This document shows, in pieces, positions 9,901-19,000 of a stretch of 64,000 bases of DNA. The notes below the pieces were generated by a model. That model did not search any database and was not told the origin of the DNA. It worked only from the letters and a program-made list of their open reading frames with translations. Each line of letters starts with the position of its first letter. Within the stretch, counting starts at the first letter, position 1. The DNA lies in the NCBI GenBank assembly GCA_017499595.2, contig CM038999.1, forward strand, positions 682,001 to 746,000. The letters run 5' to 3'. Both the position numbers and the translations under genes were made by a program. The stretch comes from Psilocybe cubensis. Lineage: Eukaryota.

Positions 9901-10450
9901 TTTCCTGAGATTGACCCGATGCTTTGCTATTCTGGCTGGCATAGGTCCGATGCGTTTCCTGCGTCTTTTGCGTCGAGCGACTTGCTTGCGTGGATCTCGA
10001 GTCGCGACGGACGACAGGCTGGTATAGAGGAAGATCCACCTGGGATGACGATTTCTCATTCATAGAATCCTCCCTCTCCCTCTCCTTCTCTTTGTCCTTC
10101 TTTCCGACACCCCATCCATAGCCCCACTTGGATGATGTCGTCGATTTTTTGGTGCCTGTCATGGTGTTCGATCGGTTAAGCCTCGACCGTCCTTTCTCGT
10201 CTTTGTGCAGCACCGGAAGCTCAGAGGGGAGCTCGTCGTACTTCTCGGAGTCTGAGTGAAAGGTAAGGCTGTCGGCTTGAGTGGTGTAGGTAGATGTAGG
10301 AGAAAATGAGGGATGTCTGACGACCTTCTGATCCTTCGCGGGAGGAGGCGGCAGGGGCTGGCGTGAATCAGAGCTAGACCAGGAGAGACGTCGCTTGGGC
10401 TTTTTATTCGAGAACGGGAAGCATAGCGGCGGCGGTGGTGGAGGCGCCAT
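6997..10450 (-). CDS. Xaa-Pro aminopeptidase (aminopeptidase P, M24B) with long Ser-rich N-terminal extension, multi-exon
   Basis: [80 protein letters not shown] motifs. Confidence 0.92.
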
Positions 10451-10886
10451 GGGAGTCGATAAGCAAGAAGTGAAGAGGAAATGAAATGGCCAGGGATGCT
10501 GTGAAGTAGCAACACGAGGCAAACGGCGAGCGGATAGGCTAAGTCCAAGGACCAAAACGACCCAGGAGTGACTGGTCTAGACTCGAACCCAGTCTCTATA
10601 GGTGATAGCTAGCTTACACATGTGGCCTCCGAGTATTAGTCAGTTGAAATTATGTGATGAAATTTATCTGGATATACTAGGAGGGACGGGCGCCAGCTAT
10701 TTCACCTATATAGACTGGTACGGTTTAGCCGTGAGCGAGTACATGAGAATGATTCTTGGCACTTTTTCGATAAAAATGGTAATAAAAGTCTCACGTGAGA
10801 TTTACCATGTGATACCAAGCCTGCGCGTATCGCCCGTCGCGTCCGTGTTGAATGACGCATGACTGATTGAAAGACTCTCCTCAACT

Positions 10887-13858
10887 ATGTCATACACAAC
10901 TCGCACACCTCGCAAATGTACAAACGACGAAAACAAAACACCGTTACGGCGCCCTGCTTCCACGATTGTCTTTCGCCAGCCAAAACTGACACCCAGTCAA
11001 ACCACGCCGTCAAGAGAGCCTCTCACGCCTTTCAAATCCAATTCAACACCCATTTCTTTTGTTGACGGCCTTACTCCCCAAACCAAAAAGCGAAAAGCGC
11101 AGTCGGATATACAGGAGCAGAAGGAGAGACGTAGAAAGGAGAAAGAGGTGAAGGTTCTATCACAACAACAGCAAGAAAACGAGGACATTGACCATTACCT
11201 GGGGTTACTCAATGACGGCGGGTACACCCTTCACTCCTTTATGTCCGCGCTTCTCAGAACCACACACCCAGTTCGCTCATCGCAGGTTTCACGCATGCTT
11301 GTGAACCATGGCAAATCACTCTTGGACAACATAATGGCCCGTGAGCGAGTTGTAGCCACTGACTGGGCACTGTCAACAACCCGACAGCTTGCTGCAATGG
11401 AGGCCGATGCTCTGGCTGCGGAATTCACGCCATCCCGCGGCCAGTCAATGTTTGAAACTCTTGCCCACTTTTCTCTATCGGGTTTCTTGCAGGATGCCGA
11501 ACGAATTGCACCTACTTTGTACAACCATTTCCGTGTCGTTGCCTTTCCACCCTCGTCGGAGAAGTACAAACACAAACAACATGACCTGGTGTGTTGACTT
11601 TATGTTCCAACATATGTTTGTTGCTTACAATTTACCAGATTTTGGCTACAGTTTTTTGTATGCTTGCCAAGTCTCGGAGCGAGCATGCAACCGACTTTCA
11701 GACTTCAATGTGCCTATATCTATTGGCCTGCGGCACCTCGAAGTCGCTTTTTAATGTTCTGAATCACGCTGGACTCACACTTTCGTATTCACAAGCTGTT
11801 GAAAAGCTGAAAAAGCTGAGCGACGAGTTGCTTGAGGAAACACGGACTATTGCCCACCTGGTTACATTTATGATCATTTGGGATAACATCAATTTCGCCT
11901 TCCGTGTCAGTCAACAACGCCACGATGCAAAGGATCATTTCGATAATGGTACAACTGCCACTCTTGTCCCGCTGTTTGGAGTAGAGGTTGGGTCTCTTCC
12001 AACGTCCCTCAAACCGCCGCGTGTGGTACGCCCTCAAGTCTTAGAGTTTGATGGTCTCGATTTGCTGCCAAGTTGCGAGGAGGCTTTCCGTGTGCAAAAT
12101 GGGCAACTTTGGCACATCGAGGACATTCTGTATAACGCATTTCCAGATCTACGCAGTAAATTATTCGCACACATTCTTCCTGCACCAACAGTGCATCAAA
12201 TTCCAGTGCATCAAACACGTCAGTACCCATTACCGGCAATGCATATCGATGAGTCGAGTCTGGACGGAACACTCAATGTTCTTTCTACAATCTTGCAAAC
12301 GACACTTCAAATGTCCGAGGAAGATGTCAAACGACATGGTATTATTATTTGTGCTGGAGATCAACTGAGCTTGTCGCTATTGGACAAGGTAAGCCAGTTT
12401 ATATAGTAATATTACATCTCGCTAATGTTGCACTTTGGAAGGCATCGGCTATTCGGCGTGACGACACAAACTTTCTTGACAACATTGGCCGCTTTACAGA
12501 GGGTCAGGAGGGTCTTCTTCACCTCAAATTCTCACACGCTCGTATGATTGCAAATGAATTTTGGGGAAAACCAAATGCACGATCGCCGTGGTCATTATGG
12601 AAAGTCAATACTTTGCTTGCTCGGAAACCAATCTCTGCAGGATGGAAAGTAAAGTCGCCAGCCCCTTTCCGTCCGGTTTACGAGCTTATTCTTGATTTAA
12701 CACTGCCGGCCAACATACTCGATGCTTTCCGAATTCACTGTGGCTACGAAAGCCTAGAAACCTGGATTAAGACCGGTGTTACGAGTGTTGATGATGTCCG
12801 TAGGGTTTCTCAGCTGGTTTTGGACAAAAACTGCTCCGGACGCCGTGTGCAATCACTTCGGGCCACCAAAATGCGAGATATTCCTCTCGAAAACATCATT
12901 CTTTTCAATCGTGATGCGCTTTATCTTCGCCAGCTCAAATATGCGATCAAAAAGGGTGATGTTGGTGTTGTATTAGATCTTTGCACACATTTAATGTTGG
13001 CCTTTCGTGGGACGGGGAAAACGCCAAAATACGCAGATGCATTGTTTGGCATTGTTATGCGTCTAAAAAAGATGAATTCGACACTTCGGTAAGTTGTTGT
13101 TGTGATTTTCAATATCGCCTCGCTAACTGTGTTTTTGTCAGAGACGCATGGCTCAACAACTGGCTTGCAAATCTCAGTGGCAAAGTGGATGGGTTCAAAG
13201 AAATGGATCTATTGCAGGAGCATCAAAACTTCTGGCTAAAAGTGAGTCGGTTGTCAGTCAGTCAATAGTATTCTGTGTATCATGGGCTGATTTTTGTTAT
13301 GAGATTATTTATAGTGCCAAAGGGTCAAACCGCAGTTGGCAGTGGCTTTCAATGGTCTCCGTTTGCATTTTTGCATTACGCGATGTGATGCGGCGCATGC
13401 ACAAGGAGTACTCCACTCCTTTTAATAGCATTAGCCACACCACTCCGACAACAGCAACAGACATTGCCACCTTGCGTACCCATTTGGAAGCTCAATCATT
13501 GCAAACCTATACACCAAAACGTGAAAATAATGACGACTGTGTTGAAGCGCGTGACCTTCTTCAAGCCGGCTCGGAATATGCAAACAAACCGTCAGCATAT
13601 CATAACTTCAAGTATGCAAAGATTAAGACTACGCATCGAGGGACTAAATCATCAAATTTATCAGAAGAGTCGGTATACGAAAATGCGAATGACAAAGGTG
13701 TGTTTGAGGACGGAAATGATATTGATATTGGTTCAGATCTTTGTATGAGTATAGAGGATTTGTTGATGGACAACGAAGAGTTTCCTATAGGTGCAGATGG
13801 TGATTATTATGTATCAATTGTACAGGGCATCGCAAACGAGTTAAGTATATACAACTAA
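10887..13858 (+). CDS. DUF6589-type putative DDE transposase of the Academ-like element; exons 10887-11588, 11639-12388, 12442-13088, 13142-13241, 13304-13858
   Basis: Motifs IIWDNINF, LPAMHIDESSLDG, CAGDQLS, LLHLKF, AIKKGDVG, FRGTGKTPKYA, NNWLANLSG, EMDLLQEHQN; GT-AG introns join the exons in frame. Confidence 0.8.
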
Positions 13859-16025
13859 TCACAAAAGTTTTCTGGTGTCAATATATCTGCAAATGATATC
13901 GAAGCATACGGTGCAGGCACACTTGTTGAGTCCTTCGACTTCTCCTTTTCTGAACTTTCTACTCGCCTGTTCTCAAGAGCATTGTTGATATTCTCTAGTT
14001 CCTCCATAAGCATTAAGCCCCACTTGTTAGGTCCATCAATGCTTGAATCATGGCCAAATCCCCATCGCACAATTTGACGGAGGTGAGAATAATCTCTGAT
14101 TAGCTCGCCACAGCTTGCAATCTTATTAATTACCTCATCGGAGATAATCATACTACTTGAAAAGCTTGATAGGTTGCTGTAAACCGCGTCCATCAGATTA
14201 TGCTCTCGGAACTTGAAGAGTTTATTTCGAATATAGTTCTGTTCTTCTTCTGGCATTTTTTTCTTGCGTCCACGCTTTAAGCTGGTGAGTTGATGTCGCA
14301 CTATATTGTCCAATGGAAATAAATGAGGCTGACAGTTGTCACAGCACCGTGAAGTATGTGTAGTGGGGTTATACGTTGTCGTTTCCTGATATATAAGCTG
14401 AACTAATGTTCAGGTAAGTACTATACAATATTAGAATAAAAGAAACTTGACACTCACGTTTGCTTGCATTATTAAAGAATGCATCCCAGATCTTTCGGCG
14501 GCACTCTTTTGTGATCACAAAATTTAGCAAGGCCCGAGTTTCTTGCAGGTGAGTGTTTGTTTTTGTTTGCACTTTCCGTTTGCCTTTGGAGTGCCGTACA
14601 GAAGGTGTCATCGCAAACGTAGCATCAGCGTCTTCGTTATCTGACTCAGCTGCATTTGCAATTCGGACTCCTTCTTCATCTAGTGCTTCGACAGAGCGAT
14701 CCAGTTCTTGTTCACTAATAGGCCGATTTAATGCCTCGCCTTCAGCAGCCGCCATGACAATAGTATCGTTAAATGCATCCTCAGTAATTTCACCCTTTGC
14801 TATTCCTGGATTAACAATTAGTATTGCCTCAGCATCTGTATTGAGGTCTCTTCCTGCACGACCAATTCTCTGTACAAGAGAACAGAAGGTTTCAGGCAAC
14901 CCCCATAGGACAACTCGAGCAATATTGCGGAGGTCGCATCCCTGAGGTATGTTATTAGATTTGGTAAAATTAAATCATACAGACGCACCATTCCTAATGC
15001 CTCTGTACAGATGACAATCCGGATTTTATTATCAGAAAGCAGCTGTTCAATTTCGCGTTTACGGTCATTTCCAACGCAAGAATGGTAGAAAGCAATGGTA
15101 TTGCGAGGTATGCTTTGCTCTTCTGCCCAATCTCGAAGTCGATCAGCACAGTCCTCTGTTGTTGCACGCTGATTGCAATATACAAGAGTAACAGGTATGT
15201 CGTCCGAGTTATTTGCGTTTTGTGGAATTAAAAACCGCAAATCAGCCTTTGACGCATTGTCAAACTCCATGGTACGGACAGATAATGCAATGTTTGGTCG
15301 AGCGTTACTAACCCTGACCATTTTTGGATTTGCCAAACGTAGCTTTCCTAAGACATCGCTGAGAACATGGTCTGGTAATGTTGCCGATGCCGCTAAAATG
15401 GGTACATTGACAGGAATTCGACCTCGCAAGATGCCCAAGTTGCCATAATCTGGCCGAAAGCTACCACCCCACATGGTAATACAGTGGGCTTCATCAATGT
15501 TTACAGACCGAAGATGGTCTGTGATTTCTGGCTTCGACCAGACAAATTTGTGAAACTCAGGTGAAGCTGCAATCTCTGGCGAGACCATAATGTGTTGAAA
15601 CACCCCTCTAAGAATGTCGGAATACAGCTGATCTTTTCCGACTTGAGAAACTGTCTGTGCACAAACAGCTACAGTGTTTAACACAGCGCTTGATGTCTAG
15701 TAGGTGTCCAATGAATTATTAATAACATATTAATTCTCCTATTACAAAATTTGATACGTACTTGGTCAATCATCAGAGCAGTCAATGGTGATACGGTGAT
15801 TGACATATCAGATTTACATAGCATCAGTGGCAGCAAGAAGCACAGTGATTTCCCGCAACCCGTGCCAACATCAAGAACCACATCTTTTCCTTGCAAAATT
15901 GCCTCGGCAGCTATTAATTGCCATCGGAAAGGTCTTTTGCAAAGTATTTTCCATGAGAGATCGCTAAGAATGTTCAAAAGGGCTTCGTCTCCTTTGTACT
16001 GTTGAACCTTTGAAGAAATAGGCAT
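13855..16025 (-). CDS. RecQ-like superfamily II helicase carried by the transposon, multi-exon
   Basis: PFRWQ, Walker A GTGCGKS, SPLTALMIDQ, SPE, IDEAHCITMWGGSFRPDY, ASATL, FYHS, CTEALGMGCD, QRIGRAGR, ECRRKIW, CCDNC. Confidence 0.9.
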
Positions 16026-19000
16026 TTCGAAGATGGAGTAAGAAAAATTGAGATTTGAAACATAGCTACACCAATGTTTTCGTACACATATTGGCTGACC
16101 AGTCTCAATTCAAATCATCCGACCTGGTAAAAATACTGCATAGATTACTTTTCCAAAGCCATTCTGCTCTGTACATCTCAATACTATTAAACAGATTAGG
16201 GGTGCTAATTAACGACGCGTCGACGCCAAGGTAGTATAAATGATGGTGTTTGGCCAAGGCCTTGCACGTGCACCTTTTATTCCCTATTTCAGCCAAAATG
16301 TGCCAAGGCTCGCTCTCATGTACTGCCTTACGGTTAAACCCCACCAGACTATCTACGGAGTATACCGTGTGAAACCTGGTATATCCGGATTGTCTGGAGT
16401 CGAGACTATGACTGGTCAGTGGTCAAGCCGTACGCGGGCATCAGCTGGACAAGCGACCGGGCACGTGCACGGAGGTGCCGAGACTGGCACTGAGCCTTGT
16501 ACCTCCCCATCTCGGGCAGCAAATGCCCATAACTCGCTGTATTGAGCCGATCCGCTTTAATCCTACCGTGCTTAACCTTGTCTTCAGTTCACAACACAAG
16601 CTGTGTATCGGCTATGAATGCACGGTATGAAGTACTTGGACAACATAACGATCTTACGTTCATTGACATTTCCCCAGCCTGAGGATCGTCGAGGAAGCCA
16701 AGGTGCGCGGCACAAAGCCACGAAATTCCCAAGGGCTCTGGGACAGTCCCTGCATGCCTGGGGCGTGCCATGAAGCCGGGGCCGCAAGGCGAGGGTGAGT
16801 AGACCGCTACGACCGGACAACCCTCCGGTCAGTGATAGCCAACGCAGTCGTAGCCAGGCGACTGCGTTCGAGAATCTGGGCGAATGAACGGGAAACTTCT
16901 TGGAGCGGCTCAGAGATGCTAGACAAGACAGGCAAACAACGGGTGTCTGCACAACACTCGCCCAGCGATGCACGGTGACGCAATGCATGCAGGTGGCCGG
17001 AGACGGGGCATTGCCGTTCATTGAACAGCAATTAACAAACTTTTCATAGATAGCTGCGCATCTAACTCTTGCTGTGAAAAACGACCTACAAAAGGAAAAT
17101 GGAGGGCGGAGCATCTACATATACCGGTCAGAAATTACTTTTTGCGTAGAAATGAAGAAACCGATCCTACACGTCGTATACCCGGATGAGTATTTAATTG
17201 GGCAGACCCAAAGATATAACCTACAGCGTGAACACTCGAATCAAAATGGCATCTGGACCCTACCGTCGGTCTATACATTGTCAGAATCACGTATAGATAG
17301 CACCTCGGCTCGAAGGACCTAGGTTGGAGTTAATGCTCTAGAAATGTCCGAAGTGAAGCGATTGTAGTCTGGCAAACTCGCTATGAAGTAGATAGCGTCC
17401 ACACAGCGCCAGCTCGGGAGAAAGTCGGATATGAATTGAGAAGGAGAGCGATGTTATCGAGTTCCCTCCCAGGCTGTTTATCGGTTAAAATTATCCACAT
17501 TCTGCAGTGGTCCATCCAGTAACTCGCCACTTCCGACCAAATAGGAATCGGACCTCTATATCCATGCGGCCGTTTAGCACAGAAGTGCGATTACTTTGGA
17601 GCATTTTCACCGCTGAATGAATATTCTGTGGTCAAAGAGAGCGTTGAAGTGTATTTCAAACGCAACCCAGATAACAGGAGCCTGCAAATAGCCGACGCGA
17701 AGCCTGTCTTCTTGGTTCCTTTGTGATCTGTCGTGATTCTATCGTTGAGTGAGATTTACGGTGTTAAAGAGCTTCTCTTTACTCACTTGATGTCTTCAAA
17801 AATAACGGATCAGATACAATATTGCACTGTAGCACAGAACAACCCTCAAATGATGTGACGAACATCCAACGATCATAAACTGCGGCCACGTACTGACTGT
17901 ATTAAGAAGGTTATTCGGCACCCTTGATGCGCATATATGCACCCATTGTGTTGATTAAGGGGTTGAATACGGCAGACCGTTTAACCCACTGGCTCTCAAC
18001 AAGCAGAAGATTCCAGCTGATCGATGCCAGGGTTTTCAATTTAAAGCTTTACCACACCACTATGTATGGTAGCGGTCACAGGGATTTCCCGACGAAGGGC
18101 GCGCATATAAACACTAGAAAGCAAAAATAAAAGTTAAACACACATTGTATTACCTCCACCATTCGATAGTTCCCCTTTTCACTCACAAAGATGTGTTGCC
18201 TGGCACCTGACCCTTTCGCAGTGATGTTATACGTAGTGAGTTGGCAATTTGTGTCCTCTTGACGTAGTTAGATGGGAGATACACCCAAGCTAGGATGTTT
18301 CCTTAAGAACATCATCCTGAGGGCTGCTGTGGGCGGTTCGACGGATGGAACTCTCCTGTAGATTTAAAACGGTCATAATTCTATGTTAGTACTTCTTGAA
18401 AAGTAGAAATCTCAATTAAATGCCGGATTGTGATGGTAGTAAGAGATCAAGGGTCTGCCAAAATCGGTAGGCGCCCACAGTGTGACCCCACGTGACAAGA
18501 TAACAAGGCCAGGCAATTTCACCAAATCGCCAAATTTTCATTGTTCTCGTCTTAACCACCATTGGCGCCCTCCAAATTTGCGTTTAAAACCTGTTATTTC
18601 TGTTCCAAATGGATACCAGACTCCAGGATTGCCGCAAGGGGACCTCTGGGCTATATTTATCTGTGCTCCATGTTGTGTTGGAGGAGAAACCCCGGATCTG
18701 TCCCACGAAGTGTTTGTTCTTTGCTCTGAAGAACACCTACGGCTACGACGCGTTTGAAAAGAGGAATCCGTTTGCATAGGATCTTTAAGTGAGATAACAA
18801 TCTGCTTATGCTCGTTGTATTGCATGGCAAATGTGTTCACGCTGACTTGAAAAAGCAGCATGTATGCAGCAGTTTTAGGTCCAGAATTCATATGTCGTTT
18901 TCAAACCGGCTTTCAAATGGTTCTAGATAGTGTCCATCTTGATGACAGAAGTCCACAACCTCGATGAAACGAGGCCCATGCTACCTTCAGTTTCAAAAAT

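Follow-up and report, generated by a model that had tools for sequence, protein, structure and literature searches.

The ends of eukaryotic cut-and-paste transposons are usually seen as duplex inverted repeats that are bound by protein. In En/Spm (CACTA) and Ac/Ds elements, the transposase binds short subterminal motifs that occur in both orientations, and RAG/Transib systems use 12/23 signals. Helitrons carry a 16-20-nt hairpin located 10-12 nt from the 3' end. In the IS200/IS605 family (e.g., IS608), subterminal hairpins form in single-stranded DNA, the two ends are unlike, and the cleavage site is read by pairing with an internal guide. We know of no explanation for why some DDE transposons carry a helicase. 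Published accounts describe AcademH, of the Academ superfamily, as generating a 9- or 10-bp target-site duplication (PMC10045372) and as carrying a helicase besides the transposase, in fungal hosts and at low copy number (PMC10045372, PMC10799480). KolobokH, likewise a DDE transposon of fungi, is described as having a RecQ helicase that follows the transposase domain downstream (PMC9587614).

The element analyzed here lies within a 64-kb stretch of DNA, hereafter the window, to which all positions refer. It is 5,831 bp long, is flanked by a 9-bp direct repeat and contains two converging genes, one for a DDE-type transposase and one for a RecQ-like helicase. A 9-bp duplication and a separately encoded helicase are in keeping with an AcademH-like element; the transposase fold is compatible with Academ and not specific for it. 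The likeness to AcademH as published comprises the 9-bp duplication, a helicase with its own gene next to that of a DDE transposase, the fungal host and the low copy number. KolobokH was considered and rejected: in the window the helicase has a gene of its own, which lies on the other strand and converges on the transposase gene, and the 9-bp duplication fits AcademH. In the literature searched no account of folded or dimorphic Academ ends was found; the termini may be covered in the original description of AcademH.

The ends of the element recall several of the other systems in part. With Helitrons it shares the coding of a helicase and a predicted hairpin ~10-11 nt from the terminus, whereas Helitrons have a Rep/HUH nuclease, no target duplication and a hairpin at one end, as opposed to the predicted DDE fold, the 9-bp duplication and the hairpins at both ends seen here. 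As in IS200/IS605, the ends are unlike, each with its own predicted hairpin, and the bases of the tip match bases of the hairpin foot within an end; the bacterial host, the Y1 HUH transposase and the lack of a target duplication that mark this family do not apply. A single-strand HUH transposon of either kind was rejected on the modeled DDE-type fold and the 9-bp duplication. Each end contains a conserved motif in inverted copies, which is reminiscent of En/Spm and Ac/Ds. There the motifs are short and do not differ between the ends, whereas here a complementarity of 13-25 nt extends into sequence that the ends do not share. The presence of two kinds of ends, one of each per element, is a likeness to RAG/Transib, with the differences that the loop lengths are not fixed (29-93 vs. 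6-52 nt) and that the heptamer/nonamer logic was not seen.

A mobile element and its two genes

Contigs from four public runs (X1, X7, X8, and X9) were compared with window positions 10450-16550. Runs X7-X9 covered the element in pieces only, and the conclusions from them are limited to the covered parts; copies of the element outside the window are known through the run contigs. In run X1, one contig comprised exactly positions 10578-16408, at a depth of 148.6 compared to 24.9 in the flank, from which about six element copies without any differing letter are estimated. The empty site was present in a 55-kb X1 contig and in an X8 contig, where 10568 is joined to 16409 with nine shared letters and a single TGACTGGTC. 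Alternative flanks abut 10577/10578 (X1) and 16408 (X7). A further X7 contig joined 11258 to 15780; this form without 11259-15779, which keeps both ends, is an internal-deletion, non-autonomous derivative of the usual kind. The identical copies, the empty site, the other flanks and the deletion derivative with both ends show that the termini are exact and that the element has been mobile recently. Within the 64-kb window, no more copies of the termini or of the inner block were found besides the two ends, and 10-mer matches elsewhere in it were at chance level (9 found vs. 6 expected). The ORFs flanking the insertion matched no Pfam family.

Diverged relatives occur in the same genome. Two long X1 contigs match left subterminal parts (10612-10742) with many differences, a 3.6-kb X1 contig at ~3x the flank depth matches short coding pieces (within 12236-15506), and an annotated paralogue of the transposase (P0002) is 69% identical. 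In run X8, a contig at ~160x (others ~3x) matches just the 36 nt from 16317 to 16352, i.e., the foot of the right 3' arm and ~30 nt inward, and is unlike the window on both sides; it probably represents a high-copy related family or a miniature element that shares the conserved foot and the subterminal block.

The transposase gene is spread over four reading frames and is therefore probably spliced. Pfam PF20231 (DUF6589) matched three ORF pieces (E 1e-22, 4e-44, and 3e-8), and the central ORF is 100% identical to an 865-aa hypothetical protein of Psilocybe cubensis (NCBI). DUF6589 was present in all 41 homologues found, the named sources of which are Agaricomycete fungi. The AlphaFold model of the 865-aa protein had a mean pLDDT of 74.8 and gave weak Foldseek matches only, the best being Hermes (E 7.9e-3). 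VIA-align placed model residues ~250-770 on the Hermes transposase (Z 11.7, rmsd 6.7, 296 residues), with further matches to ISCth4 (Z 9.5), the P element transposase (Z 8.6), RAG1 (Z 7.6) and Transib (Z 7.2); the best 30 matches were transposases or integrases without exception. The model has an RNase-H-like core interrupted by a helical insertion, of the type found in hAT, P and RAG/Transib. Because of these fold matches, DUF6589 is concluded to be a DDE-type transposase with a helical insertion domain, of which hAT, P and RAG1 are fold relatives.

The helicase gene matched Pfam DEAD (E 1e-9 and 3e-8), and its matches to Helicase_C and RecQ_Zn_bind were below the Pfam cut-offs. Among the best 80 of the 132 related contigs, a helicase homologue lies beside the transposase and on the opposite strand in 32 of the 32 loci where one was found. 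In L062 and L066, which are the most distant of the families whose contig carries both genes, the helicase is located upstream of the transposase in divergent orientation; in the 30 remaining loci it is downstream and convergent.

Palindromes at the ends and their covariation

The left end reads TAGACTCGAACCCAGTCTC from 10578 and the right end, read inward from 16408, TAGTCTCGACTCCAGACAA. A sequence-only reading of this DNA had proposed that both ends fold on themselves, with a mini-hairpin at each tip and a longer alternative stem. On re-reading, the mini-hairpin sequences proved correct at both ends: AGACT-N7-AGTCT on the left (10579-10583 and 10591-10595) and GTCT-N7-AGAC on the right (16392-16406). 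The two ends have their first 17 nt in common save for positions 4, 10, 11, and 16 and are unlike from position 18; positions 4 and 16 and the inner block had been rightly named as differing, to which 10, 11, 18, and 19 are added. The inner block is ATAGACTGG on the left (10710-10718) and ATAGTCTGG on the right (inward from 16352). Since only ~17 nt of inverted repeat are shared, standard inverted-repeat finders would see no relation between the subterminal parts of the two ends. Further in, 10707-10797 and 16265-16355 form an ordinary inverted repeat (91 nt, 76% complementary), and the left end is ~70 nt longer than the right. A nested insertion with the inner TAGNCTGG as an older terminus was rejected: the inner block has inverted and not direct flanks, and every family shows this layout.

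The two long stems are also present as described. The left one, in which 17 nt are 94% complementary according to the inverted-repeat search, pairs 10589-10610 with 10695-10718, and the DNA fold of 10578-10725 had a predicted energy of -23.5 kcal/mol (z -4.18, 0/200 shuffles as good). For the right end, 16336-16408 folded inward (stem 16344-16397) gave -12.1 kcal/mol (z -2.78, 2/200 shuffles as good). The mini-hairpins alone were at chance level, with -1.8 kcal/mol (14/200 shuffles as good) on the left and -1.0 kcal/mol (61/200) on the right. The features of the element are listed in the table; the labels A-type and B-type were coined in this analysis.

Features of the element in the window, with their positions, strand and basis
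Feature	Position	Strand	Basis or remark
Left copy of the 9-bp target-site duplication, TGACTGGTC	10569..10577		identical 9 nt at 16409-16417
Transposon, entire, 5,831 bp	10578..16408	+	separate X1 contig with exactly these ends
Left terminal tag (A-type), TAGACTCGAAC	10578..10588	+	bases 2-6 are mini-hairpin arm 'a'; motif TAGNCTCGANNCCAGNC
Left 5' arm of the long palindrome, CCAGTCTCTATAGGTGATAGCT	10589..10610	+	first 7 nt double as mini-hairpin arm 'b'
Left loop, 84 nt, G runs toward the 3' side	10611..10694	+	fold
Left 3' arm, foot AGACTGG at its end	10695..10718	+	inverted-repeat search, fold
Left subterminal block common to the right end	10719..10797	+	inverted repeat
Transposase gene (DUF6589), four reading frames	10863..13858	+	Pfam PF20231; 100% match to annotated protein
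RecQ-like superfamily-2 helicase gene, converging with the transposase gene	13855..16109	-	Pfam DEAD
Right subterminal block common to the left end	16265..16343	-	inverted repeat
Right 3' arm, inward GGTATACTCCGTAGATAGTCTGG	16344..16366	-	fold
Right loop, 11 nt	16367..16377	-	fold
Right 5' arm, inward CCAGACAATCCGGATATACC	16378..16397	-	fold
Right terminal tag (B-type, T/A variant), TAGTCTCGACT	16398..16408	-	sequence comparison
Right copy of the target-site duplication	16409..16417		sequence match and empty-site joint

Relatives were collected by using an alignment of 20 homologues against public metagenome contigs, among which chimeras are possible and dead and live copies are mixed. The search gave 233 pattern-matching stretches, 132 of which encoded a relative, and the best 80 were taken. 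Ends were sought in these with the pattern TAGNCTCGANNCCAGNC, allowing up to 2 mismatches, requiring a TA start, leaving positions 4, 10, 11, and 16 free and ignoring the hairpin. This yielded 32 ends, including the two of the window, in 27 clusters (lineages) at 85% identity; the pattern fixes 13 bases and misses very divergent ends. A looser search that required a hairpin added 11 ends with a tag one base shorter, which were used for state counts and not for prevalence. Matching 9-bp duplications flank four elements, namely that of the window (TGACTGGTC), L038 (ATTGTCGTG), L045 (AGTCTGGAC) and L062 (GACATTTCC). L007, L028, and L056 have both ends on the contig and flanks that do not match; they are probably assemblies across copies, as the left flank of L027 is the right flank of L028. 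For L079, an inverted-repeat search gave no usable second end. The transposases of L062, L066, L067, and L079 are 29-31% identical to that of the window, and the end feature is still present in them. The target duplications of the window and of L045 include the stem-foot motif GNCTGG, which is absent from those of L038, L062, and L027, and the window target with its next base (TGACTGGTCA) is nearly palindromic.

Each end is best explained as a three-part module and not as a plain inverted repeat. It consists of a tag, TAGNCTCGAnn, which is 11 nt long in 32 ends and 10 nt long in 11, of an imperfect palindrome whose arms measure ~13-25 nt, and of a loop. The palindrome foot is CCAGNC paired with GNCTGG in every case. 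In all 32 pattern-defined ends the stem starts from base 11-12 and the best partner stretch ends in CTGG, with loops of 7-93 nt and with differing stem sequences; a start at base 11 or 12 was seen throughout, in 42 of 42 ends and on both sides of every element. The spacing of the arms (the loop) ranges from 7 to 96 nt across the related ends. When folded against 100 dinucleotide shuffles each, 24 of the 32 ends outdid 98 or more of them (median z -3.3), and the eight ends that failed this threshold include visibly decayed copies. Fifteen shorter, intact-looking ends chosen for comparison had z values from -1.8 to -6.9, with at most 1 of 200 shuffles as good in 13 of them. In four ends (L062-, L067-, L045-, and L038-), additional pairing of 4 nt of the tag with the 4 nt after the hairpin lengthens the stem beyond an internal loop, a feature not seen in general.

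Covariation was assessed for a stem of 19 pairs named on a MAFFT alignment of the 27 lineages and compared with 500 shuffles. In this alignment, 75.0% of the cells were paired, as against 63.7 ± 1.4% after shuffling (reached by 0/500) and 31-42% when the arms were slid by 1-3 columns, and the covariation score was 0.311 compared to 0.151 (0/500) and 0.07-0.12, respectively. The two of the five measures that are least inflated by relatedness were borderline: double-sided changes occurred in 15 of 19 pairs (12.1 in shuffles, reached by 13/500), and there were 35 further pair types (31 in shuffles, reached by 38/500). In helix 2 all eight pairs had double changes; 58% of its cells were paired in the fixed columns, which is partly due to indels, and the columns of the distal helix are uncertain. 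RNAalifold, without a given structure, predicted the stem foot (columns 12-21 with 181-190), in which 6 of 9 pairs were compensatory.

The arms of an end also fit each other better than those of its relatives. The mean arm-fit score was 27.3 for the cognate arm, 16.7 for non-cognate arms of the same end type and 12.2 for those of the other type, and the cognate arm ranked top in 22 of 27 cases. In a sister test, each end was paired with its nearest relative of the same type, the choice of pairs being ours and each end being used a single time. Without selection, changes after the split should hurt own and swapped arms equally; the sum for own arms exceeded that for swapped arms in 17 of the 17 independent sister pairs (binomial p 7.6e-6). 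In five elements, the arm fit within an end was 21-39, compared to a likeness of 8-17 between the left and right 5' arms. Pairing was lost by single transitions in the decayed-looking copies L044 (compared with L038) and L056 (compared with L028), and stem position 5 carries a fixed C.T mismatch in 7 of 34 lineages. Pairing is conserved with compensatory changes across independent lineages; it has been upheld over a clade whose transposases have diverged to ~30% identity, and selection on within-end pairing is supported. The sequence-only reading had postulated selection on intra-end structure and not on terminal inverted repeat identity, to be seen in the termini of related families. For the long stem this holds (27 lineages, 17/17 sister pairs, folding better than shuffles), and for the mini-hairpin it is not supported.

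The mini-hairpin and the two end types

The only mini-hairpin pair that varies is 4-16, which was A-T in 10, G-C in 8, T-A in 2 and unpaired in 7 of 27 lineages. Pair 2-18 was unpaired in 18 of 27, and the remaining three pairs are near-invariant and uninformative. The covariation of base 16 is not peculiar to the mini-hairpin, since this base also occupies the fifth position of the long stem. The mini-hairpin was absent from the minimum-energy folds and from the RNAalifold prediction. With its chance-level fold and the break at 4-16 in 7 of 27 lineages, it is a weak stem.

Three bases were scored over 42 ends in 34 clusters, namely bases 4 and 16 and the one in the center of the 3' foot GNCTGG (the foot base). 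The triples were A/T/A in 15, G/C/G in 9, T/C/T in 7, T/A/T in 2 and A/C/A in 1 cluster, i.e., base 4 was identical to the foot base in 34/34 and base 16 was complementary to it in 26/34. In the T/C/T families base 16 pairs with neither partner. These include L027/L028/L055, which are near-identical copies in three contigs, so the mini-hairpin need not be perfect. On the transposase tree, G/C/G is found in the outgroups, T/C/T in two large clades and T/A/T in the window and L021 only. Based on this distribution of states, position 16 seems to have been repaired late in a single lineage, giving the A/T swap of the window. The claim that the swap keeps pairing within the window's ends is correct; its status as a private compensatory event is not upheld, as it is the local form of a dimorphism in which the B ends of most relatives have G/C or a mismatched T/C at positions 4 and 16. 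Perhaps 3-4 independent switches lie behind the identity of base 4 and the foot base, which is flagged here and not built upon.

This dimorphism divides the ends into two types. A ends begin with TAGACT and have the foot CCAGTCTC and a median loop of 63.5 nt (range 29-93 nt). B ends begin with TAG[G/T]CT and have the foot CCAG[C/A][C/T]G and a median loop of 21.5 nt (range 6-52 nt); the loop lengths differ between the types (Mann-Whitney p 4e-5). All seven contigs with both ends had one A and one B end, and none had two alike. The A end adjoins the transposase gene in the window, L028, and L045, and the helicase gene in L038 and in the L034/L032/L036/L010 clade; in L026 the B-type end is on the transposase side, implying an A end beside the helicase. 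The gene next to the A end flips at least 3 times on the transposase tree. As the neighbor of the A end differs among families, the dimorphism does not serve the promoter of one gene. Recombination between the inverted subterminal blocks, by inverting the whole interior, would produce such flips.

Competing explanations and a possible mechanism

Since the two arms evolve together, the palindrome is read as selected to self-pair, and we give the reading that the conserved palindromes act as folded DNA about an even chance. The arms could instead be inverted binding sites for the transposase or the helicase on duplex DNA, comparable to the subterminal repeats that other cut-and-paste transposons have, in which case complementarity would be a by-product of two copies of a site. 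The strongest point for duplex sites is the conserved foot and proximal arm with partly parallel change at both ends: within an end type, the sequence of the foot and of the first 8-13 nt of each arm is kept throughout the clade, arm parts (TATAG, TCTGG, TTACGG) undergo parallel changes on the two sides of a family's element, and the conserved G-run motif of the loop (36 GGG vs. 1 CCC run) resembles a site for another protein. Most difficult for this explanation is that complementarity runs on into unshared sequence across spacings of 7-96 nt. It includes the loop-side arm parts, which differ between ends and families (21-39 within ends vs. 8-17 between them), and the eight helix-2 pairs, all with double changes; moreover, such spacings are ill-suited to a fixed dimer, and two type-specific versions of the site would require two specificities. 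We consider duplex sites unlikely. It is improbable, in our estimate, that the palindromes have no role and are kept up by template switching, arm-to-arm correction or repeated inverted duplication while hitchhiking with functional neighbors. Arm-to-arm correction is known for quasi-palindromes, perfecting and compensatory changes look alike in alignments, and the change of position 16 from C to A in the window and L021 lineages is a possible correction. On the other hand, L044 and L056 have lost pairing by single transitions that were left uncorrected, and a stem start at the same place in all 42 ends suits constraint better than repeated accident.

Two further explanations concern what folds and where. 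Base 4 always matches the foot base, base 16 is mostly its complement, and pair 4-16 occurs in three Watson-Crick forms, all of which would suit a mini-hairpin (2-6 with 14-18) that is a real alternative to the long stem, with base 16 switching between base 4 and the 3' foot. Against such a switch, the short stem has just 4-5 bp and -1 to -2 kcal/mol, no better than shuffles, and appears in neither the minimum-energy folds nor the RNAalifold prediction; it has a single varying pair, which is broken in 7 T/C/T and 1 A/C/A lineages, and the identity of base 4 and the foot base goes back to perhaps 3-4 independent switches. We hold it to be quite improbable. That the hairpins act in RNA seems very unlikely, whether the transcripts start at the ends or read through them, and whether the hairpins give rise to small RNAs or control the inward-facing transposase and helicase genes. 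In favor of a role in RNA, both genes are read inward, which places the ends in or near promoters or leaders. Among 500 stem cells, G.T mismatches (7) were no commoner than A.C mismatches (9), so neither strand looks RNA-like; the end type is uncoupled from the neighboring gene, with the A end beside the helicase in at least 3 clades; the stem starts 11 nt from the tip, outside likely transcripts; and Rfam gave no match for window positions 10000-17000.

If the palindromes do act as folded DNA, they would form a DNA hairpin at some step of transposition, most likely when the transposon end is unwound, and the element's own RecQ-like helicase would be the obvious candidate for this unwinding. 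The DDE transposase could then read the conserved foot and the tag at a fixed distance of one turn and cut beside the foot, and the two end types may let the machinery tell the ends apart. Where the loops are large (30-96 nt), single-strand hairpins would be favored over cruciforms extruded from duplex DNA, and the folded-DNA model would need an unwound state of the end. We infer pairing in DNA, its timing, the part of the helicase and the function of the foot as a recognition site. The full proposal, in which a DDE transposon recognizes its ends as single strands folded by way of its own RecQ-like helicase and requires the pairing of an A with a B end, is doubtful at present. If true, it would place the logic of IS200/IS605 and Helitrons, in which the hairpin keeps a constant distance to the cut and the tip bases of each end match its own hairpin foot, in a eukaryotic DDE cut-and-paste transposon, and it would give a first mechanistic rationale for helicase-bearing DDE transposons (AcademH, KolobokH). 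A whole clade keeps a foldable palindrome 10-11 nt from the tips, with compensatory changes and two end types, and the question can be put to the test in an element that is active by nature, is present in about six identical copies and has left an intact empty site.

The loops are G-rich on the inward-reading strand, with 351 G compared to 161 C in 27 ends, from which the GGG and CCC runs were also counted. A GAGGG-like motif is often located just 5' of the 3' arm, and some A-end loops (L016, L079) contain at least 4 G runs. Judged by their sequence, these G runs may be a protein site or may form a G-quadruplex, the latter being notable beside a RecQ-like helicase.
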